A DNA stretch of 64,000 nt, from the IMG/VR virus record IMGVR_UViG_3300036780_000414, positions 18,796 to 82,795 of that record; one strand, written 5' to 3'. Each line of letters starts with the position of its first letter. Position 1 is the stretch's first letter. Below, piece after piece: positions 18,498 to 55,751 of the stretch. The notes under the pieces were generated by a model, which was not told the origin of the DNA, did no database searches, and saw only the letters and a program-made list of their open reading frames with translations. The position numbers and the translations under genes are program-made. This DNA comes from a virus.

Positions 18498-19268
18498 ATG
18501 CCTAACAGGCGTGCCGTCATCGCACTCGCGTCAGCGGGTGCCCTCGCAGCCGCGATCCCGCTCACGCTCACCGCGTCCAGCGCCAGCGCCGTCACCGTCC
18601 AGTGCCAGAACACGCCCCGGCCCGTATCCGGTCCCGTAGGGTGCGGGACGTTCTTCCTCCCGCAGGTCGGCTACCCGCACGCCACCAGCGCCCTCGCGCT
18701 CAGCGCCGCCGGGTCCAGCTTCGGCAGCCGCGCCGAGGTCGAGCCGATGAACGGCAGCCCGATGCAGGACTGGACCGCCTACCAGGTCTGCACCGGCCTC
18801 ACCCAGGACCGTTCCGCGGCCGCCCCGTGCGGCTCAGGCGGGAAGGTCGTCGCCGGGGAACTCGTGCTGCGGCTGTCTCCCGGCGGCACGCAGCCCGCCG
18901 GGGGTGTCAACAGCTTCCACTCGCTGTGCCTGGTAGACGACAACGGCCGGGTGGGGCTCGGCTGGTGCCAGTCCGGGGCGGCGTTCTACGACGAAGGGTT
19001 CCCCAACCCGCCGGACAGCAACGGGGTCCCGCCGGTTGTCAGCCGTCCGAACCCGTCCGAGACGTGGAAGCTCGTCAAGGCGGGCAAGGCCGTCATCATG
19101 GTCAACGTGTACTCCGGTCGCGCGCTCGACGACGCGGCGAACGGCGGCCCGTCGCACAAGCTGATCACGTACGAGCGGAACGGCCTGGCAGACCAGGACT
19201 GGGAGACGGCCGGCTGCACGGCACCGTACACTAGCGAGCCCGGCGCGTACGGCTGCATCACCGGGTAG
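18498..19268 (+). CDS. Secreted ricin-B (beta-trefoil) lectin-like protein
   Basis: Signal peptide with NRRAVI and SASA cleavage site; QDW motifs, VNVYSGRALD; GAGAGAGG RBS; opposite strand to its neighbours. Confidence 0.7.
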   Translation: MPNRRAVIALASAGALAAAIPLTLTASSASAVTVQCQNTPRPVSGPVGCGTFFLPQVGYPHATSALALSAAGSSFGSRAEVEPMNGSPMQDWTAYQVCTGLTQDRSAAAPCGSGGKVVAGELVLRLSPGGTQPAGGVNSFHSLCLVDDNGRVGLGWCQSGAAFYDEGFPNPPDSNGVPPVVSRPNPSETWKLVKAGKAVIMVNVYSGRALDDAANGGPSHKLITYERNGLADQDWETAGCTAPYTSEPGAYGCITG

Positions 19269-44234: not shown

Positions 44235-44832
44235 CCTGTTGCGGGTGCTGGGCTTCGACCAGTCGCTCACGTCGTTCGGCGTCGCCGCGATCTACGGCGC
44301 GGAAGCGGAGGCGTGGCGGCTGCGGTACCCGCCCAGGAAGCCAGCGTACGACGTGCGCGCCTACCAGCATGAGCGCCTGGCGTACCTGGAAGACGGCGTG
44401 CGCAGCGCGGCCAGCGGCGCTCACGTCGCCGCGCTGGAGGACGTGACGTACGCGGCTAAGGGTGACGCGCTGACCGACCTGGCGGGCCTGTTCTGGATGG
44501 TGCGCCACGTCCTGTGGGAGATGCACGTCCCGTACGCCGTGGTCAACAGCAGCCACCGCCGCAAGTGGATCACCGGCCGTGGCGACGCGCCCAAGGACGA
44601 GGTGCTGGCGGCGGTGATCAAGCGGTTCCCTCGCGTCAACGTGTGCGGCAACGACGAGGCTGACGCGCTGGTGCTGGCCGCCATGACCGCCGACCGCTAC
44701 GGCTGCCCGATCGTGCAGATGCCCGCCGACCGGGCGGCCATCCTGAACGGCGTGCACACGACCAAGCCGAAGCGCGGCCAGCCGCTGATCGACTGGCCAC
44801 AGCTGCGGGAGACGGTAAGACGGACACCATGA
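44224..44832 (+). CDS. RuvC-like Holliday junction resolvase
   Basis: VLGFDQSLTSFG, ALED, KWITGRG.A.K, NDEADA. Confidence 0.85.
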   Translation: MATDLLRVLGFDQSLTSFGVAAIYGAEAEAWRLRYPPRKPAYDVRAYQHERLAYLEDGVRSAASGAHVAALEDVTYAAKGDALTDLAGLFWMVRHVLWEMHVPYAVVNSSHRRKWITGRGDAPKDEVLAAVIKRFPRVNVCGNDEADALVLAAMTADRYGCPIVQMPADRAAILNGVHTTKPKRGQPLIDWPQLRETVRRTP

Positions 44833-45443
44833 GTAGTCTGTTTCCCGAGCCCGTCGCGGAGCCTGGCGCCGGCCAGGCGCCCAGCAGGTTCAGTAACAGG
44901 CTGCGGTACCGCCGGGAAGATCACCCGAACCAGTGCCAGATCACCCCGGAGTACGTACTGATCCCCGTCCGGGCGGCGCTCGGCGGGATCATCGGCCTCG
45001 ACCCGTGCACCACGCCAGACAACCCCGTGGGGGCTGAGCGGTTCTTCTGCCCGCCCGCTGACGGTGCCGCTCTCCCCTGGGACTCGGGCAGCATCTTCGT
45101 TAATCCGCCGTACGGCAAGGCCCGCGAGCGGTGGGTTAGGAAGTGCCTTACGGCGGGGTTCGCCGGCAGCACGGTCATCTTGCTGATCCCCGCCGCGACG
45201 GACACGGGTGTATTCCAGCAGGCACTAGGCAGCGCGCAATCGGTCGTGTTCATTCAGGGCCGTGTCAAGTTCGGCGTGACGCGGCCGAACCAACGGCAGG
45301 CAGCTGCGAGCCACCCGTCTGCGCTGATCGGATGGAATACGGACCTGGCGGCGTGCGCATACCTGGGCACGGCCGCTACGCCTGTCGTCACCCGGCCCGT
45401 GCTGGAGGCGGCCAGGCCGCAGATCGAGAGGGAGCCGGCATGA
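44829..45443 (+). CDS. DNA N6-adenine methyltransferase (phage Dam-like)
   Basis: TPE, LDPC, DG...W, FVNPPYG, LLIPA.TDT, GRVKF. Confidence 0.85.
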   Translation: MSSLFPEPVAEPGAGQAPSRFSNRLRYRREDHPNQCQITPEYVLIPVRAALGGIIGLDPCTTPDNPVGAERFFCPPADGAALPWDSGSIFVNPPYGKARERWVRKCLTAGFAGSTVILLIPAATDTGVFQQALGSAQSVVFIQGRVKFGVTRPNQRQAAASHPSALIGWNTDLAACAYLGTAATPVVTRPVLEAARPQIEREPA

Positions 45444-47057: not shown

Positions 47058-48368
47058 ATGACGACCCCAGTGACCGACCTCAACGCGGCGTTCGCCGCTG
47101 AGCGCACCGAGCAGATCGGCAAGATCCTGGCGTTCAACGAGGGCATCCCCGGCCGCGCCGAGGCCGCCCGCGAGGCAGCCGAGGGCTACCGGGCCGACTT
47201 CGCGCAACGCGTCGGTGACGGCAAGGTCCGCGACAACGGCGACGGCACGTTCACGGTGACCGACCCCGGCAGCTACGACGACGGCGAGACGCTGCGGATG
47301 CGGCAGCCGCGCGGTTTCGAGCAGGAGCAGCCGATGCCGATGCCGGTCAGCAACCTGGACGAGAGCCGGGGAACCGCCGCCCTCTACACCAGGGTCCCCG
47401 AGTGGCACACCCTCGGCACGGTGATCCGCGCCGGCGTCAGCGACCTGGATGAGGTGCTGCGGCTCGCGCAGATCGACTTCGAGGTCATCAAGCGCTCAGT
47501 CCGCTACTCCGTCGACGACGACGAGATCGCCGCTGAGCTGGCCCGCCCGCTGACGAAGGTGTTCGACGGCCAGTTCGTCACGCTGCGCGCCGACACGATG
47601 GCACCGCTCGGCACGGTCGGCAGCATCTACACCCCCATCCAGAACGGCGACGCGGGCAGGTTCCTCCAGGAAGTCATCGCGACCAACAAGATGGTCTTCG
47701 AGAGCGCCGGCGCGACGTACGGCGGCAAGCACGTGTTCATCGGGATGCGGCTGCCGGAAGACGTGGTGCTCGACCTCGGTGACGGCGTGACCGACGTGAT
47801 CAAGCCGTACCTGTACTGGCTGAACGGCCACGACGGGCGGACCAGCGCGACGGTCGCCGTCACCCCGTGGCGGGCCGCGTGCGGGAATACCGAGCGGTTC
47901 GCGCTGCGTGACGCGGTGGCCCGGTGGCGCACCCGGCACACCACGAACGTGATGGGCGAGGAGCAGGTCAAGGAAGCCCGCCGGACGCTGAACCTGACGG
48001 TCAAGTATTACGAGTCGTTCAAGCGCGAAGGCGAGCTGCTGGCCCGAACCGAGGTCACGAACGCGGACTTCGATGAGCTGATCAAGTCGGTGTACGAGCT
48101 GAAGGACGACGACACCGACCGCAAGAAGGAGTCGTGGAACGCGCGGGCCGGGGTGCTGCAAGAGATGTACCGGGGCGAGTCGGAGAAGCTGGGCCGCACC
48201 GGGTACGCGGCCGAGCGCGCATTCACCGACTACTTCGACCACGTGGCCCCCCGCAAGGGCACCGCTGACGGGATGGCCGCAGCCCGCGCCACCGCCCTGA
48301 TCGAGGGCAGCGACGACCAGGCCAAGACCACCGTTCACAAGAAGCTGCTGACGCTGACGACCCGCTAG
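47058..48368 (+). CDS. DUF932-family phage/plasmid protein
   Basis: WH.LG, LGTVG..Y.PIQN, ESAG...GG.HVF, NGHDG, TP.R..C.NT, RHT motifs. Confidence 0.8.
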   Translation: MTTPVTDLNAAFAAERTEQIGKILAFNEGIPGRAEAAREAAEGYRADFAQRVGDGKVRDNGDGTFTVTDPGSYDDGETLRMRQPRGFEQEQPMPMPVSNLDESRGTAALYTRVPEWHTLGTVIRAGVSDLDEVLRLAQIDFEVIKRSVRYSVDDDEIAAELARPLTKVFDGQFVTLRADTMAPLGTVGSIYTPIQNGDAGRFLQEVIATNKMVFESAGATYGGKHVFIGMRLPEDVVLDLGDGVTDVIKPYLYWLNGHDGRTSATVAVTPWRAACGNTERFALRDAVARWRTRHTTNVMGEEQVKEARRTLNLTVKYYESFKREGELLARTEVTNADFDELIKSVYELKDDDTDRKKESWNARAGVLQEMYRGESEKLGRTGYAAERAFTDYFDHVAPRKGTADGMAAARATALIEGSDDQAKTTVHKKLLTLTTR

Positions 48369-49369: not shown

Positions 49370-49939
49370 GAGAGGGAAAACACCGATGACACCGTACGAG
49401 CGGTTGCAGCTGATCCAGCTGACCGAACTCCCGGCGGCGGAACGGCGGGTACGCGAGACCTGCGAGGCGTACACGTGGGCGAAGGCGTTCAAGGACGGCC
49501 TGCGTGACGAGCTGCGCGAGCTGTCCCAGATCCTGCACGACGACGAGACGGGGGCACCCAGTGCCGCTTAACCATAAGGGCATGCAGGCCATCAGGGCGC
49601 GTCACCAGCAGCACACCTGCGCGAGCCACTGCGAACCGGGGATCTGCGTGCACTGCCAGGACAAGTGGCCGTGCGACGCGGTGAAGCTCCTCGACGTGGC
49701 TGCTGCGGCGGCGTACTTCGCTGAGACGTGGGCTGAGCTGATAACGCTGATGCCCGACGAGTACGACTGCACGATGCAGTGCGGCGAGGCTGAGGCGGCA
49801 GCTGGCCTGTACCGGGCACTTGGCGACGGTAAAACAGCCGAAGAGGTCCTTGACGCGCACGCGGCGCACGACACTGAGGAGGACAGCCACTACGAGCGGG
49901 GCGCAGCCGTCATCCGGGCCGCCCGTGAGGAGCAGCAGC

Positions 49940-50572
49940 GTGACCGAGCAGCAGGACGAGGCAGTCCCGTTCCGGGTAGCTGACCAGGAGTACGACCCGG
50001 CGATACCCGTCGACTCAGTCAGCGAGCACCCTAAGAACTACGTGATGGGGGACATCGGGGCCATCAGCGAGTCGATCGACGCGCACGGGTTCTTCGGCGC
50101 GGTCATCGTGCAGCGCAGCAGCCGCCGCATCGTCGCCGGCAACCACCGTCACCGCACCGCGAAAATGAAGGGCGCGAGCACGGTCCCCGGCTTCTGGCTG
50201 GACTGCGACGACGACGAGGCTGAGCGGATCCTGGCGGTAGACAACCGCACCGCCCGCCTGGCAACATTCGACGACGCCGCACTGCTGGACCTGCTGGTCG
50301 GCATCGCGACCAGCAGCGGCGACCTGAAAGGTACCGGGTACGACGGTGACGACCTGGACGACCTGCGGCAGATGCTGACCCCGCCGGACCTGGAAAAGCT
50401 CGGCGGCGGCGGCGGCCCGAAAGACAATGACCTGTGGCCGGTGCTGCGGTTCAAGGTCCCCCCGGCGGTACGCGACCGCTTCTACCAGGCCACCGACCCG
50501 GCCGAGGACCAGACCGACGAGGGCCGGTTCTTCTGGATGCTGCACCAGGTAGACCACCTTGACCCCCGCTGA
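49940..50572 (+). CDS. ParB/Srx N-terminal domain protein
   Basis: HPKN..GDIGAISESI..HGF, IVAGNHR, LAVDNRT; GTG 49940 with GAGGAG RBS. Confidence 0.85.
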   Translation: MTEQQDEAVPFRVADQEYDPAIPVDSVSEHPKNYVMGDIGAISESIDAHGFFGAVIVQRSSRRIVAGNHRHRTAKMKGASTVPGFWLDCDDDEAERILAVDNRTARLATFDDAALLDLLVGIATSSGDLKGTGYDGDDLDDLRQMLTPPDLEKLGGGGGPKDNDLWPVLRFKVPPAVRDRFYQATDPAEDQTDEGRFFWMLHQVDHLDPR

Positions 50573-51128
50573 GCTGGCCGCCACGGCGGTACGCGACCAT
50601 CACGCCATCCAGCAGCCCGAGGAGCTGACCCGGCTGATCAGCCGGCTGCGCCGCCTCCGCCCGCTCCGCACGGTGATCGAGATCGGCTGCGACGCCGGCG
50701 GGACACTGTGGGCATGGCGGCAGGTATGCCCCGTGGTGTACGGCATCACCCTGCCGGTGTCCCCGCCGGGTGAGGGCCTGTTCCCGCAGGGCAGGCACCC
50801 GCTGGAAACGCACGGCGCACTCGTGCACCTGGGAGACAGCCACGATGCCGGGTCGGTTTTCTGGCTGGGCGCACAGCTGGGCTTCGGCAAGCAGGCTGAC
50901 TTCCTGTTCATCGACGGTGACCACAGCCCCGAGGGTGTCCTGGCCGACTTCGAGGACTACCGGCACCTTGTCCGCCCCGGCGGGCTCATTGCCCTGGACG
51001 ACGTACTCAACCCGGACCTGGACGTGCGGAAGGCGTGGACGCACATCACCAGCCTGCCGCTGCACACGGAAGTGATCAGCGCGGGGAAGATGCCAGCGGG
51101 GATCGGCCTGGTGCATGCACCAGCCTGA
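50559..51128 (+). CDS. Class I SAM-dependent methyltransferase (Methyltransf_24-like)
   Basis: VIEIGCDAGGT, GDS, DFLFIDGDHS...DF...LVRPGGLIALDD. Confidence 0.85.
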   Translation: MTPAELAATAVRDHHAIQQPEELTRLISRLRRLRPLRTVIEIGCDAGGTLWAWRQVCPVVYGITLPVSPPGEGLFPQGRHPLETHGALVHLGDSHDAGSVFWLGAQLGFGKQADFLFIDGDHSPEGVLADFEDYRHLVRPGGLIALDDVLNPDLDVRKAWTHITSLPLHTEVISAGKMPAGIGLVHAPA

Positions 51129-52053
51129 CCCGGTAGCCCGCATGCTGGTCAGCTACTACTACCGGGGAAAGTGTGACCTGGGCCAGATAGTCGACATGGA
51201 AGCTGCGCTGGGCAGGGCAGGCGGCCGGCTGGAGCTGTTCGCGGACTCCGGGGCGTTTTCGGCGTTCACCCAGCGGCGCGGCGGTGCGAGCATCAAACGG
51301 GAAGAGTACGCCGCCTGGCTGACGGAGTGGCAGGACCAGCTGAAGATCATGGTCAACCTGGACGTGATCGGTGACGCGAAGGCCAGCGCCCGCAACCAGC
51401 TGTGGCTTGAGGACCGGGGCCTCCCGGTCTTGCCGGTCTACCACATGCAGTCACCGCTGAGTGAGCTGGAGGCGCTGTGCCGCGACTACGACTACATCTG
51501 CATCGGCGGCACCGCATCGCTGACGGGGACAAAGAAGCTCGCCGCGACCGCCCGCGCGATGCTGATCGCCCGTGAGCACGGCACCCGCGTGCACGGGCTC
51601 GGCAGGTCCGCGTCGGAGGAGCTGGCTTCCCTGCCGTTCTACTCTGCCGACTCGACCACGTGGACATACGGGGCTCGCTTCGGCTCACTCCAGGTGTTCA
51701 CCGGCAGCCGGGTCGCTTCCCTGCCCGTGCAGGAAGCAGTCAGGCACCCTGTCCTGATCCGCTCGCACGGGGCCGACCCGCAGCGGATGGCTGTCCCGGC
51801 GTACGGCAACCGCGGAAAGAGCCTGGGGATCATGAAAGACCAGGGTGACTACCGGCGGGAAGTGGACGAGTCGGTGTTCGTGGCCGCTGTCGCGTGGAAG
51901 CGGCTCGAAGCGCACCTCCGCGCACGGCACCGTGTTCCCCCGCCGCCAGGGCAGGAGTCAACGGGGACGAACCTGTGGCTGGCGGACAACGCCATCCGGC
52001 ACTTCGCGGTTCTGGTCCGCGCGGTCAGCTGGCTAGCTGAGACCAGCACATGA
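51115..52053 (+). CDS. dpdA: DpdA/TGT-like 7-deazaguanine DNA transglycosylase, copy 1
   Basis: FADSGAFS, NLDVIGD, PVYH, IGG, VHGLG, SADSTTW TGT-fold motifs; sits in a Que operon. Confidence 0.75.
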   Translation: MHQPDPVARMLVSYYYRGKCDLGQIVDMEAALGRAGGRLELFADSGAFSAFTQRRGGASIKREEYAAWLTEWQDQLKIMVNLDVIGDAKASARNQLWLEDRGLPVLPVYHMQSPLSELEALCRDYDYICIGGTASLTGTKKLAATARAMLIAREHGTRVHGLGRSASEELASLPFYSADSTTWTYGARFGSLQVFTGSRVASLPVQEAVRHPVLIRSHGADPQRMAVPAYGNRGKSLGIMKDQGDYRREVDESVFVAAVAWKRLEAHLRARHRVPPPPGQESTGTNLWLADNAIRHFAVLVRAVSWLAETST

Positions 52054-53024
52054 CACCGCACCCGGATCCCGTGGCCCGGATGCTGGTCAGCTACTACTAC
52101 TGGCGCAAGCGGGACCTTTCGCAGCTCGACAAGATGGCCGCCCCGCTCACCGCTGTGGGTGGTCACCTGGAGCTGTTCGCTGACTCGGGGGCATTCAGCG
52201 CGTACACGCAGCGGGGCGGCGGCGCGGCGATCCGGCGGGAAGAGTACGCGGCGTGGCTGACGGAATGGCAACCGCGCCTGCGGGTCATGGTCAACCTGGA
52301 CGTGATCGGCGATGCCGCCGGCAGCGCCCGCAACCAGCTGTGGCTTGAGAACCGGGGACTGAACGTGACGCCGGTCTACCACATGCAGTCCCCCGTGGCG
52401 GAGCTGGAGGCGCTGTGCCGCGATTACAGGTACATCTGCGTCGGCGGGACCGCCAGCCTGACCGGCGCACAGAAAACCGCTGCGACCGCACGGGCGATGA
52501 TCGTCGCCCGTGAGCACGGGACCGCCGTCCACGGCCTCGGCCGCTCCTCAGCTGACGAGCTGTCCGCGATCGGCTTCTACTCCGTTGACTCAACCACGTG
52601 GATGCAGGCCGCCCGTTACGGGGACATTCACCTGTTCGACGGCCGGACGCTGCGCCGCCTGCCGATCCGCAAGGCGGTCAGCGAACCCGCGCTGATCCGC
52701 CGGCACGGCGGCGACCCGCAGCGGATGTGCCGCCCCGACTACGCGAACCTCCAGTACCGCAACCGCAAGGACCCCGCCCAGTACGCCTCTTACCGCAGGG
52801 AGAACGATGAGGTCGTTTTCATCGCCGGGGTCGCGTGGAAGCGGTTCGAAGCGCACCTGCGCCGCCGTCACCAGGTGCCTCCTCCCCCAGGTCACGAGAC
52901 AAACGGCACAAATGTGTGGTTCGCTGACGACAACATGCTGCACCAGCAGCAGATGATCGCGGCCGTCGCGTGGCTCGCGTCATCACCGTTACGGCCCGGC
53001 GCTAACTGGGAGGGAAAGCGATGA
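52050..53024 (+). CDS. dpdA: DpdA/TGT-like 7-deazaguanine DNA transglycosylase, copy 2
   Basis: Same motifs intact (FADSGAFS, NLDVIGD, VHGLG, SVDSTTW); full-length paralog of copy 1. Confidence 0.75.
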   Translation: MTPHPDPVARMLVSYYYWRKRDLSQLDKMAAPLTAVGGHLELFADSGAFSAYTQRGGGAAIRREEYAAWLTEWQPRLRVMVNLDVIGDAAGSARNQLWLENRGLNVTPVYHMQSPVAELEALCRDYRYICVGGTASLTGAQKTAATARAMIVAREHGTAVHGLGRSSADELSAIGFYSVDSTTWMQAARYGDIHLFDGRTLRRLPIRKAVSEPALIRRHGGDPQRMCRPDYANLQYRNRKDPAQYASYRRENDEVVFIAGVAWKRFEAHLRRRHQVPPPPGHETNGTNVWFADDNMLHQQQMIAAVAWLASSPLRPGANWEGKR

Positions 53025-54007
53025 AGCCGTCAGAGCATTTCCGGTTCACCGTGCAGGAGCACGACCTGCTGACAGGGGCACTCGCGGTACTGCCGGACAT
53101 CGGCGTGCTGATGCAGAAGACACCGAGCACCACGCTCAAGCGGTGGGGGGCAGTCCTCCACCATGACGACCGGACACTCCGGGCGCTGCGCGGCGTACCC
53201 GGCCTGGGCGCGGCGTGGGCAGCCCACATGGCCCAGGACGAGATCAGCCACCCACCGGGTACCTACGGGCTACCTGAAGCGGCAGGCGTCCCCCAGGACC
53301 CGGTGATCGCGTACTCAGGCGGACCTGACTCGTTCATCGCCTGGCGGCTCCTCGGCCACCCGGAAGCGGTCTACCTGGACTTCGGCAACCAGGCCGGCCA
53401 GGTGGAGAAGTACCGGGTGCAGCTGGCCAGCGACAAGTTCGCTGACCCGGACCGGCCGGTTACCTTCATGCCCAGCTACAGCATGCGGGAACTGTCGACC
53501 GGCTGGATCCCGTACCGGAACCTCCGCATCATCCTCGCGTGCGCTGAGGTCGCCCCCGATGTCGTCCTCGCCCGGATCGCCGAATGGGGGCCGGATAAGA
53601 ACCCCGGCTTCTTCCGCCGCACCGAACGGCTGCTCGCCAGCTCACGCGGCGGCCACTTCCAGGCTGCCGCGAACCTCCCGAGGGTCCGCATCCACACACC
53701 GTTCGGTCACCTCACCAAGACGCAGCTGGTCCGCCGCTACCTCCAGGTGTTCGGCCCGGACGCCGCCGACGACCTGGTCCAGTACACCTGGTCCTGCTAC
53801 GGCCCAGGCCCGCTGTTCTGCGGCCAGTGCGGCGGCTGCTGGTGCCGGTGGGTGGCGTTCCACCAGAACGGCATCCTCGAAGAGGACCGCTACGCGCAGC
53901 ACCCGGAACGCGCCGCCTACTACCGGCGGCTGGACTGGCGGGACTTCCGCCCCGGCATGGCCGGGATGTACCTCAAGCGGGCGTGGGAAATGCGGGGGCT
54001 GGGCTGA
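53021..54007 (+). CDS. queC: QueC-like 7-cyano-7-deazaguanine synthase with ~90-aa N-terminal extension
   Basis: PP-loop YSGGPDS, IPYRN, TPF..LTK, TWSCY...CGQCGGC. Confidence 0.85.
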   Translation: MKPSEHFRFTVQEHDLLTGALAVLPDIGVLMQKTPSTTLKRWGAVLHHDDRTLRALRGVPGLGAAWAAHMAQDEISHPPGTYGLPEAAGVPQDPVIAYSGGPDSFIAWRLLGHPEAVYLDFGNQAGQVEKYRVQLASDKFADPDRPVTFMPSYSMRELSTGWIPYRNLRIILACAEVAPDVVLARIAEWGPDKNPGFFRRTERLLASSRGGHFQAAANLPRVRIHTPFGHLTKTQLVRRYLQVFGPDAADDLVQYTWSCYGPGPLFCGQCGGCWCRWVAFHQNGILEEDRYAQHPERAAYYRRLDWRDFRPGMAGMYLKRAWEMRGLG

Positions 54008-54411
54008 TGCCCGAGATCACGAAGACGTTCAGGTTCGCCGCGTCGCACCGGCTCGACGGCCTGCCGCCGGACCACAAGTGCATGCGGCTGCACGGCCACA
54101 ACTACATGGTGATCGTGTCGCTGCGCTCACCGAGCCTGGACAGCGCGGGCATGGTGATGGACTACGGGCAGCTGGCGCCGTTCGCTGACTGGCTGGAAGG
54201 CACCCTCGACCACCGGCACCTGGGCGGCGGCGACGTGTTCGACGCGGACGGGAAGCTCACCGACCCCGCCGTCCTGCCGTTCATCCCGACAGCGGAGAAC
54301 CTGGCCGGGCACCTGCTGGGCATCGCCAGGGAGATGTTCGGCCACTTCGTCACGGCGGTGGAGGTACGCGAGACCGACAACGTGACCGCGACCGCGAGGG
54401 CCGCCCGGTGA
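54007..54411 (+). CDS. queD: 6-carboxytetrahydropterin synthase
   Basis: FAASHRL, KCMRLHGHNY, GMVMDY, LDHRHL, PTAEN, VRET. Confidence 0.93.
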   Translation: MPEITKTFRFAASHRLDGLPPDHKCMRLHGHNYMVIVSLRSPSLDSAGMVMDYGQLAPFADWLEGTLDHRHLGGGDVFDADGKLTDPAVLPFIPTAENLAGHLLGIAREMFGHFVTAVEVRETDNVTATARAAR

Positions 54412-55178
54412 ACGCCACGGCGGGCACTGAGCCCACCGTCCGTGACCTGCTGGTGTCGGAGGAGTTCACCGCGCCGCAAGGTGAGGGCCCGCACATGGGC
54501 CGCCCGATGTACTGGGTCCGCCTCGGCGGCTGCGGCCTGGAGTGCACCTGGTGCGATGAGCCGCAGACGTGGGTGTTCGACGAACGGCACAGGAAGATGC
54601 ACGAGGGCGGAAAAGCGTACGACCCGAAGGCGGAGCTGTCCCGCGTGACGGTGGAGAACCTGGCCAGCCGCATCGCCGTGACGAACTACACGACGGTGGC
54701 GGTGACCGGCGGGGAGCCGCTTCTCCAGCAGGAAGCCGTGGGAGCGCTGATCGACCATCCCCTCATGGGAGGGATGTCGTTCGAGTTCGAGACGGCGGGG
54801 GTGATCACCCCGTGGCGGCTGGCTGGCTACGGCAACGTGCGGTTCAACGTCAGCCCGAAGCTGGCCTCCTCGGGCAACCCCGTGGCGAAACGGCGCAACG
54901 ACGCCGCCATCGCCGCGCTGCGCGCACTGGACTCGGTGTTCAAGTTCGTCTTGGACACCAGGCAGAACGGCATGTGGCAGGCAGACCTGACCGAAGTTGA
55001 GTACCTGACCCGCCAGTGGGACATCCCGCCCGGCCGCGTCTGGGTGATGCCGTGCGGGACCACGCCAGGCGAGGTCACGGAGGGGATGCTGCTGCTGGAG
55101 CCGGTCGCGCTGGCCCGCCAGTGGAACCTGAGCAGCCGCCTCCAGGTGTTCATGCACGGCGACGCCAGGGGCTTCTGA
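54408..55178 (+). CDS. queE: 7-carboxy-7-deazaguanine synthase (radical SAM)
   Basis: QGEG..G, VRLGGCGLECTWCD, TGGEPLLQ, ET.G, VSPKL. Confidence 0.93.
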   Translation: MNATAGTEPTVRDLLVSEEFTAPQGEGPHMGRPMYWVRLGGCGLECTWCDEPQTWVFDERHRKMHEGGKAYDPKAELSRVTVENLASRIAVTNYTTVAVTGGEPLLQQEAVGALIDHPLMGGMSFEFETAGVITPWRLAGYGNVRFNVSPKLASSGNPVAKRRNDAAIAALRALDSVFKFVLDTRQNGMWQADLTEVEYLTRQWDIPPGRVWVMPCGTTPGEVTEGMLLLEPVALARQWNLSSRLQVFMHGDARGF

Positions 55179-55181
55179 GCC

Positions 55182-55751
55182 GTGGACTACGCGCTAGCCG
55201 AAGATTCCGCGCGCTTCCTGCTGGGGCACCTGGGGATCAGGTGCGAAGGTGAGCTTGACCGGACGCCGATGCGCCTGGTGCACGCCCTCGCGGAACTGAC
55301 CGCCAGCCTCCGTGACGGCTTCAACCCGGCTGAGCTGCTGGCCCGCCAGTTCAGCCCGCCCGGTGACGTACCGCAGATGATCGTGGTGGAGAACATCGCG
55401 TTCACCTCGCTGTGCGAGCACCACGTCATGCCGTTCACCGGCCTGGCAACAGTCGCCTACCTGCCCTCACCGGGGGCCAGGATAGTCGGCGTGTCCAAGA
55501 TCCCCCGCCTGGTAGAGGGCTTCGCCCGCCGGCCTCAGATGCAGGAACGGCTCGGCTACCAGGTGACGGAGGCGATAGGCAAGTACCTGGACGTGCAGGG
55601 TGCCGGCTGCACGATCCGCGGCGAGCACACGTGCATGACGCTGCGCGGCGCCTGCGCAGCAGGCACGTCAATGCTCACCAACCACCTGACCGGATGTTTC
55701 TTCGACTCTCCCCCGGTCAGGGCCGAGTTCCTGGCATTGACCAGGCCGTGA
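55182..55751 (+). CDS. folE: GTP cyclohydrolase I
   Basis: TP.R, SLCEHH..PF.G, GVSKIPR, RRPQMQERL, HTCMTLRG. Confidence 0.93.
   Translation: MDYALAEDSARFLLGHLGIRCEGELDRTPMRLVHALAELTASLRDGFNPAELLARQFSPPGDVPQMIVVENIAFTSLCEHHVMPFTGLATVAYLPSPGARIVGVSKIPRLVEGFARRPQMQERLGYQVTEAIGKYLDVQGAGCTIRGEHTCMTLRGACAAGTSMLTNHLTGCFFDSPPVRAEFLALTRP

Follow-up and report, generated by a model that had tools for sequence, protein, structure and literature searches.

A Methyltransf_24 methyltransferase in a phage 7-deazaguanine cassette: a clade-specific association accompanied by an active-site change

A stretch of 64,000 nucleotides of viral DNA (IMG/VR record IMGVR_UViG_3300036780_000414, positions 18,796 to 82,795), hereafter the window, carries a methyltransferase gene between a ParB-like gene and the first of two genes for DpdA, a DNA guanine transglycosylase homolog. 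The whole record is an IMG/VR provirus of 82,795 bp, estimated to be 86% complete. Downstream of the two DpdA paralogs lie genes for a long QueC, QueD, a QueE-like enzyme and FolE (Table 1). These neighbours had been named in an initial annotation made from the sequence alone, and PHROGs and Pfam searches led to the same assignments. From the ParB-like gene to folE, all the genes of this Dpd cassette overlap or abut. In particular, the methyltransferase gene overlaps both of its neighbours, as the initial annotation had noticed, in each case by 14 nucleotides. No promoter-like site was found between positions 48300 and 57200, where terminator-like sites were no commoner than expected by chance.

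The methyltransferase open reading frame encodes a genuine class I S-adenosylmethionine (SAM)-dependent methyltransferase of the Methyltransf_24 family. The Pfam Methyltransf_24 profile (PF13578) matched with E = 3.4e-10 and 41.2 bits, above the gathering cut-off of 26.3, and PF13578 also appears in the precomputed annotation of homologs. Inspection of the sequence confirmed the motifs EIGCDAGG (residues 41-48) and FIDGDH (residues 117-122) that had been reported, together with the reported lack of DNA-methylase motifs: neither (D/N/S)PP(Y/F/W) nor a PC dipeptide was found in the protein. It does not group with the DNA amino- or C5-methyltransferases, PHROGs giving just a weak partial match (phrog_2675, residues 110-158). 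An NCBIfam scan of the protein returned no match, and RMNT_CmcI (PF04989) stayed below its gathering cut-off (18.9 bits against 23.2). Homologs numbered 578 at E <= 0.001, and the catalytic-motif columns were invariant in 35 aligned sequences. An AlphaFold2 model built on 35 homologs had a mean predicted local distance difference test score of 93.7, the loop at about residues 61-80 alone being less certain. The predicted fold is of the Rossmann type, with alternating strands and helices, and at least 500 methyltransferases of the PDB matched the model at E <= 0.001 in a Foldseek search. This fold and the glycine-rich motif I, ExGxxxGG, place the protein in class I. Because of the number of homologs, the invariance of the motif columns and the confidence of the model, the open reading frame is considered a real gene and not a chance one.

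The distribution of the gene was studied in loci around homologs drawn from IMG/VR, metagenomes and species genomes, some contigs occurring in two of these collections. Among the matches listed, 294 sources contained a homolog, namely 293 loci and the window. Identity to the window protein was 74% for protein cluster P0002 and 58-68% for P0003-P0009, and then at most 49% for full-length matches. In an 84-member tree, the window protein and P0002-P0009 formed one monophyletic group of nine clusters (Shimodaira-Hasegawa-like approximate likelihood ratio test 98, stem 0.44), within which identity is 58-75%. The cassette order ParB-methyltransferase-DpdA-QueC-QueD-QueE-FolE is common to the window and to two other loci of the clade, L004 (P0005) and L162 (P0003). 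The methyltransferase gene overlaps its neighbours by 14 nucleotides on each side in L162, and by 4 and 8 nucleotides in L004. Among the matches listed, these three were the only sources of the 294 with DpdA, QueC, QueD, QueE or FolE in the flanks of the homolog. For two further clusters, contig sizes were informative: the longest contig of P0004 (25,119 bp) is the same as that of a 65%-identical DpdA, and the longest contig of P0002 (63,983 bp) the same as that of an 83%-identical long QueC. Five of the nine clusters (three directly, two inferred from the matching contigs) are thereby located together with dpdA and the genes for preQ0 synthesis, in the same orientation, and no cluster is known without them. 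Overall, the methyltransferase is genuinely linked to the Dpd cassette, and this holds for a single clade.

The active site of the nine clade members was then compared with that of 32 viral sister proteins and 43 further members of the family. Asp occupies position 147 in all nine proteins of the clade, and His in the rest of the family (75 of 75). The clade also shows a specific three-residue loop insertion, Pro-Gln-Gly, at residues 76-78. Besides position 147, eleven positions are clade-specific, and the changed sites include 15, 19, 68, 70, 154, 159 and 176. When the clade profile was aligned with CCoAOMT-like enzymes, FIDGDH corresponded to FIDADK and IALDDV to IA(I/V)DN, residues 147-148 falling on the D-N pair of CCoAOMT/COMT-like enzymes. 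D119, D147 and D148 aligned with the D...D-N positions of 3R3H, 3TR6 and 5LHM in weak matches (E = 2.7e-5 to 0.02). These three residues would thereby occupy the metal-ligand positions of CCoAOMT/COMT-like enzymes. Although the clade shares this motif alignment with the CCoAOMT/COMT-like proteins 3R3H, 3TR6 and SafC (5LHM), the window protein differs from them and from TrmR/YrrM (8K1F, 5ZW3) in its length (189 against about 220 amino acids), in its lack of the usual N-terminal segment and in having no substrate in common with them. The top match, both in sequence-profile searches and with Foldseek, was Mycobacterium hassiacum MeT1 (PDB 6G7D/6G80), with FIDGxH and hHDV motifs in common. However, identity to MeT1 is about 20% with a TM-score of about 0.63, and MeT1 has His-Asp where the Dpd-associated clade has Asp-Asp. 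MeT1 is a methylmannose-polysaccharide O-methyltransferase. Finally, a weak RMNT_CmcI similarity extended to CmcI, a component of the cephalosporin 7-alpha-hydroxylase/methyltransferase (PDB 2BM8; profile match E = 1.3e-4), but the Pfam score is below the cut-off, the locus has no beta-lactam gene context, and the CmcI name carried by many homologs is an automatic Joint Genome Institute label.

In the wider family, neighbour clustering and a scan of representatives identified GT4 and GT2 glycosyltransferases as the main neighbours of the homologs. Other methyltransferases, GDP-mannose dehydratase/epimerase, asparagine synthase and an ABC transporter are further neighbours, and the usual order on viral contigs is portal, capsid-protease fusion, GT4, then methyltransferase. 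Among the matches listed, a glycosyltransferase lies at most six genes away in 48 of 68 genome, 40 of 71 metagenome and 50 of 105 viral loci, counts that cover the loci where a simple gene caller called the methyltransferase (L162 is among those left out). The Dpd-associated clade is sister to 21 viral rows and is nested, in the unrooted tree, in a 41-row all-viral clade from such capsid/GT4 contexts; the complete sister-clade phages L002 and L003 carry one glycosyltransferase each. The active-site change coincides with the move out of a glycan context into the Dpd operon. The subfamily is common in IMG/VR, where 497 of the first 600 pattern matches listed encode a relative. A comparable layout, cassettes of O-methyltransferases and glycosyltransferases for capsid and tail glycans, is known from actinophages (Freeman et al. 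2023, as cited in PMC11600133 and PMC13313380). It matches the order portal, capsid, GT4, methyltransferase of the sister-clade IMG/VR phages. Kinship to the Che8 and Corndog enzymes is not established, because tblastn searches (E <= 0.001) with the window protein and with a sister-clade protein gave no match in 50,697 GenBank phage records. Megablast of the operon against GenBank phages gave no match either. In 401 genomes of the class of genome G001, nothing was found at E <= 1e-25, a threshold that also misses the known G001 match (3.4e-25).

In contrast to the virion-glycosylation cassettes, the window phage has no glycosyltransferase, carries the gene in a Dpd operon and has Asp instead of His at position 147. 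The initial annotation had seen neither a glycosyltransferase nor QueF in the window, and this held for the whole 82,795-bp record (estimated 86% complete), in which PF00534 and PF00535 (glycosyltransferases) and PF14489 (QueF) had no match while the positive controls worked. Searching the record by tblastn with 235 glycosyltransferase proteins from homolog loci returned noise alone (best E = 0.002), and PF00534/PF00535 had no match in the record of L004, which is 66% complete. Neither of the two records thus has the adjacent or co-resident glycosyltransferase of a glycan O-methyltransferase cassette. The absence of glycosyltransferase and QueF is not absolute, because the window's record is estimated to be 86% complete. 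These data bear on a first alternative, according to which the gene is an unrelated accessory gene (moron) encoding a sugar or small-molecule O-methyltransferase, for example for a host envelope glycan or one built by host enzymes, in a permissive slot and without a role in DNA modification. The glycosyltransferase-dominated contexts of the family argue for it, and the lack of a glycosyltransferase in the records of the window and of L004 argues against it.

We tentatively favour another explanation, to which we would give somewhat less than an even chance: a sugar O-methyltransferase may have been recruited to methylate a 7-deazaguanine intermediate or base. Its ancestors would have been phage O-methyltransferases encoded after the capsid gene and beside a GT4 glycosyltransferase. 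A copy would have been inserted between ParB and DpdA in one soil actinophage lineage, and would be co-translated with these two genes. In the course of this relocation or later, His147 would have been replaced by Asp beside the invariant Asp148, the Pro-Gln-Gly insertion acquired, and residues of the N-terminal lid and of the loop after strand 5 changed. The enzyme would use SAM and probably a divalent metal. It would methylate a free 7-deazaguanine intermediate or base, which could be 7-carboxy-7-deazaguanine (CDG), 7-amido-7-deazaguanine (ADG), 7-cyano-7-deazaguanine (preQ0) or the product of the remodelled QueC, and DpdA would then insert the methylated derivative into phage DNA. Methylation of the base after its insertion appears less likely. 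From the sequence we infer catalytic activity, metal use, substrate class and effect on the DNA. A deazaguanine-tailoring role had been suggested at the outset. The clade-specific link to Dpd genes, the remodelled active site and the missing glycosyltransferase favour that part of the suggestion; as to its second part, no finding indicates that the substrate is CDG, ADG or preQ0.

Several observations weigh against such a recruitment. Among the matches listed, none of the 291 other loci, with wider-family homologs of at most 50% identity, has a Dpd or Que gene nearby, most having glycosyltransferases. The initial annotation had proposed co-occurrence of homologs with Que and Dpd genes as a check and had named homologs mostly without them as a refuting outcome; for the wider family, this refuting outcome is what was observed. 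Within the clade itself, context is known for five of nine clusters and for none of P0006-P0009. The direct and the inferred cassettes come from related phages and represent one evolutionary event, not independent recurrences. Reciprocally, 79 of 80 IMG/VR DpdA loci, as well as Arthrobacter phage Sonali and Rhodococcus phage Finch, lack this methyltransferase, the sole bearer among the 80 being L298, whose contig is identical to that of L004. Nor is there a recurrent methyltransferase of another family in these 80 loci. The best relatives in the PDB are MeT1, TrmR, MycE and bacterial COMT-like proteins, at 13-22% identity and TM-scores of about 0.6, and the solved relatives are sugar, catechol and natural-product O-methyltransferases, plus TrmR. 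The statement of the initial annotation that this family usually methylates sugars or small molecules is thus sound. As for the chemistry, we know of no methylation of preQ0, CDG or ADG. The sole methylated form known, mdPreQ1, needs 7-aminomethyl-7-deazaguanine (preQ1) and DpdM, according to PMC10516641.

Comparison with related cassettes gives a further point of the same kind. In Sonali and Finch, ParB abuts DpdA, and QueC, QueD, QueE and FolE follow; the methyltransferase gene was therefore inserted into a cassette that is otherwise conserved. A close sister of the window cassette, L299, lacks the methyltransferase (identity to the window: ParB 69%, DpdA 58%, long QueC 65%). It is otherwise intact, yet a different small open reading frame sits in the methyltransferase slot. 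Nucleotide alignment of L004 with L299 shows 77% identity up to the end of ParB and resumes at the start of DpdA, so that homology breaks at the gene boundaries. Between these points, L004 has 565 nucleotides with the methyltransferase and L299 has 148 nucleotides with a small open reading frame containing a CxxC motif. A longer reading of the frame of this small open reading frame has a weak match to Pfam Phage_zn_bind_8 (E = 6.4e-4). The exchange is as expected of a swappable accessory slot, and the gene is dispensable to the cassette. A tree of concatenated cassette proteins grouped the window with L162 (support 100) and L004 with L299 (80/77), with L346 outside. According to this tree, the gene was gained once and later lost or replaced in L299; should the weakly supported node be wrong, a single gain is enough. 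To two more distant long-QueC contigs (43,386 and 13,178 bp), no methyltransferase could be assigned by matching contig size, a weak test.

The swappable slot of L299, the near absence of the gene from other Dpd cassettes and the nature of the closest solved structures (MeT1, MycE, COMTs, CmcI) all count for an unrelated accessory gene. Against this, the gene, set within a DNA-metabolism operon, is coupled in translation to its neighbours and lies beside neither a capsid gene nor an attachment site. The loop insertion and the invariant His-to-Asp change at a presumed metal ligand speak for a shift of substrate or chemistry on relocation, and the gene was retained while the flanking proteins diverged to about 58% identity. 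We regard an unrelated accessory gene as possible but doubtful. Were it one, the case would be a warning that location inside a Dpd operon does not prove function. Dispensability in L299 is also the sole point in favour of an inactive remnant or a purely structural protein. However, the window protein retains all the family-wide invariant residues (E41, G43, G47, G48, S94, H95, D119, D121, H122, D148 and W160), sequence is conserved across the clade and the fold is predicted with high confidence; a remnant or structural protein is highly improbable.

An enzyme linked to the cassette could also act on another target, such as another nucleotide or DNA position, the ParB or DpdA protein, or a host defence or signalling molecule. 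Co-expression with DNA-modification genes would fit this alternative, as would the chemical versatility of the superfamily, whose solved members include enzymes named as sugar, catechol and natural-product O-methyltransferases as well as TrmR, which acts on tRNA, and the fact that the cassettes of relatives function without the methyltransferase gene. However, no feature of the locus indicates another substrate, and the protein is acidic, with neither DNA-methylase motifs nor an additional binding domain. The clade has a median isoelectric point of 5.2 and a net charge of -9, which weakly favours a free small-molecule substrate over direct DNA binding. We know of no precedent for a Methyltransf_24 member acting on proteins or DNA. 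TrmR acts on a tRNA base, so that the same fold is usable on a nucleobase within a nucleic acid. Overall, another target seems quite improbable.

Returning to methylation of a 7-deazaguanine, eight 7-deazaguanine DNA bases are known in phages according to PMC10516641, which identified its new tailoring enzymes, DpdL, DpdM and DpdN, among the neighbours of dpdA. There, DpdM is likewise described as a methyltransferase among phage 7-deazaguanine genes that was identified by position and tailors the modified base. The window protein does not belong with DpdM, as it has neither a DUF3109 Pfam match nor a CxxxCxxCC motif. DpdM differs in being a DUF3109 protein with a two-metal motif, CxxxCxxCC, in having a fold that the same paper calls unique, and in needing preQ1 and hence QueF. 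A DpdM-like function is ruled out by the unrelated fold and by the lack of QueF in the record. Since DpdM is an unrelated DUF3109 protein, the window methyltransferase would be a new enzyme for the pathway. The papers searched, without Supplementary Data S1 of PMC10516641, describe no class I methyltransferase for Dpd clusters. A fuller proposal, that a lineage of soil actinophages makes an as yet undescribed base, a methylated CDG, ADG, preQ0 or long-QueC product, by means of a COMT-like metal-dependent enzyme co-opted from virion-glycan O-methyltransferases, a second route beside DpdM, we consider unlikely as it stands. If the methyltransferase does act on the pathway, phage anti-restriction chemistry would gain a further base or a further route. 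The enzyme would also offer a clean case of a glycan-decoration enzyme recruited to nucleobase chemistry through a single active-site switch. L004 and L299 would then form a natural pair, with and without the gene, for the value of an extra methyl group against host defences.

The QueC of these cassettes is itself unusual. Compared with QueC of Sonali and Finch, it carries about 95 additional, conserved amino acids at the N-terminus and a further extension at the C-terminus, and it lacks internal segments; the PP-loop SGGxDS and the Cys cluster are retained. Its length is 324-343 amino acids in 18 protein clusters, against about 230 in Sonali and Finch. No PDB sequence match was found for the long QueC. 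Because of this and of the heavy remodelling its product is uncertain, and may be other than preQ0.

Table 1. Positions of the methyltransferase gene, of the cassette genes around it and of other features considered in the window and in related loci
Feature	Source	Position	Strand	Match or remark
Methyltransferase open reading frame	Window	50559..51128	+	189 amino acids, TTG start; Methyltransf_24 class I SAM methyltransferase, presumed metal site, Dpd-associated clade
ParB-like N-terminal-domain protein	Window	49820..50572	+	phrog_723 1.4e-30; Pfam ParB_N 1.9e-5, just below cut-off
DpdA paralog 1, DNA guanine transglycosylase homolog	Window	51115..52053	+	phrog_887 4.8e-43
DpdA paralog 2	Window	52050..53024	+	phrog_887 3.5e-41; 64% identical to paralog 1 (alignment)
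Long QueC, 328 amino acids	Window	53021..54007	+	Pfam QueC 1e-9, covering residues 156-283 only
QueD (6-pyruvoyl-tetrahydropterin synthase family)	Window	54007..54411	+	Pfam PTPS 6.5e-27
QueE-like radical SAM enzyme	Window	54408..55178	+	Pfam Fer4_12 3.2e-6; Radical_SAM 7.2e-6, below cut-off
FolE (GTP cyclohydrolase I)	Window	55182..55751	+	Pfam GTP_cyclohydroI 2.4e-46
Long QueC	L004	11477-12472
Long QueC	L162	2203-3192
Long QueC	L299	7920-8924
Tandem DpdA paralogs (two)	Window	51115-53024
Tandem DpdA paralogs (three)	L300	5063-7909
Tandem DpdA paralogs (two)	L301	6096-7900
Small CxxC open reading frame in methyltransferase slot	L299	6854-7001
FolE, 521-amino-acid open reading frame	L299	10267-11832
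DUF6884 protein, 138 amino acids	L302	7825-8238		E 4.2e-17; weak YaaA-like match
DUF932 protein, 436 amino acids	Window	47058-48368		E 2.1e-44
Amino-methyltransferase-like gene	Window	44829-45443		NPPY motif (FVNPPYG)

The other genes of the cassette have counterparts in known actinophages. In actinophage cassettes, DpdA usually has a ParB-like partner upstream, and a ParB-like cluster occurs in 40 of the 80 IMG/VR DpdA loci. DpdA paralog 1 is 28-36% identical to annotated actinophage DpdA/queuine tRNA-ribosyltransferase genes, and the QueE-like open reading frame agrees in position and homology with QueE of Sonali and Finch. Tandem DpdA paralogs, with phrog_887 E-values of 1e-47 to 6e-40, were seen in the window and in the related cassettes L300 and L301, and a single DpdA in each of L004, L162 and L299. 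The extra open reading frames of L300 and L301 were considered as possible tailoring genes in the ParB-DpdA interval, but they encode additional copies of DpdA. The 521-amino-acid open reading frame in the FolE position of L299 has HINT and LAGLIDADG matches between two GTP cyclohydrolase I stretches. It was ruled out as an alternative enzyme, being FolE probably with an intein.

In L302 and six other IMG/VR DpdA loci, a DUF6884 protein directly follows DpdA and is a possible base-tailoring partner in other lineages; DUF6884, which would indicate a DpdC-like route, is absent from the window's record. In the window, the DUF932 gene lies directly upstream of the cassette, and the amino-methyltransferase-like gene with an NPPY motif is downstream of DnaB-like and RuvC-like genes. 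The phage may therefore combine conventional DNA methylation, by this classical NPPY methyltransferase-like gene, with deazaguanine modification.

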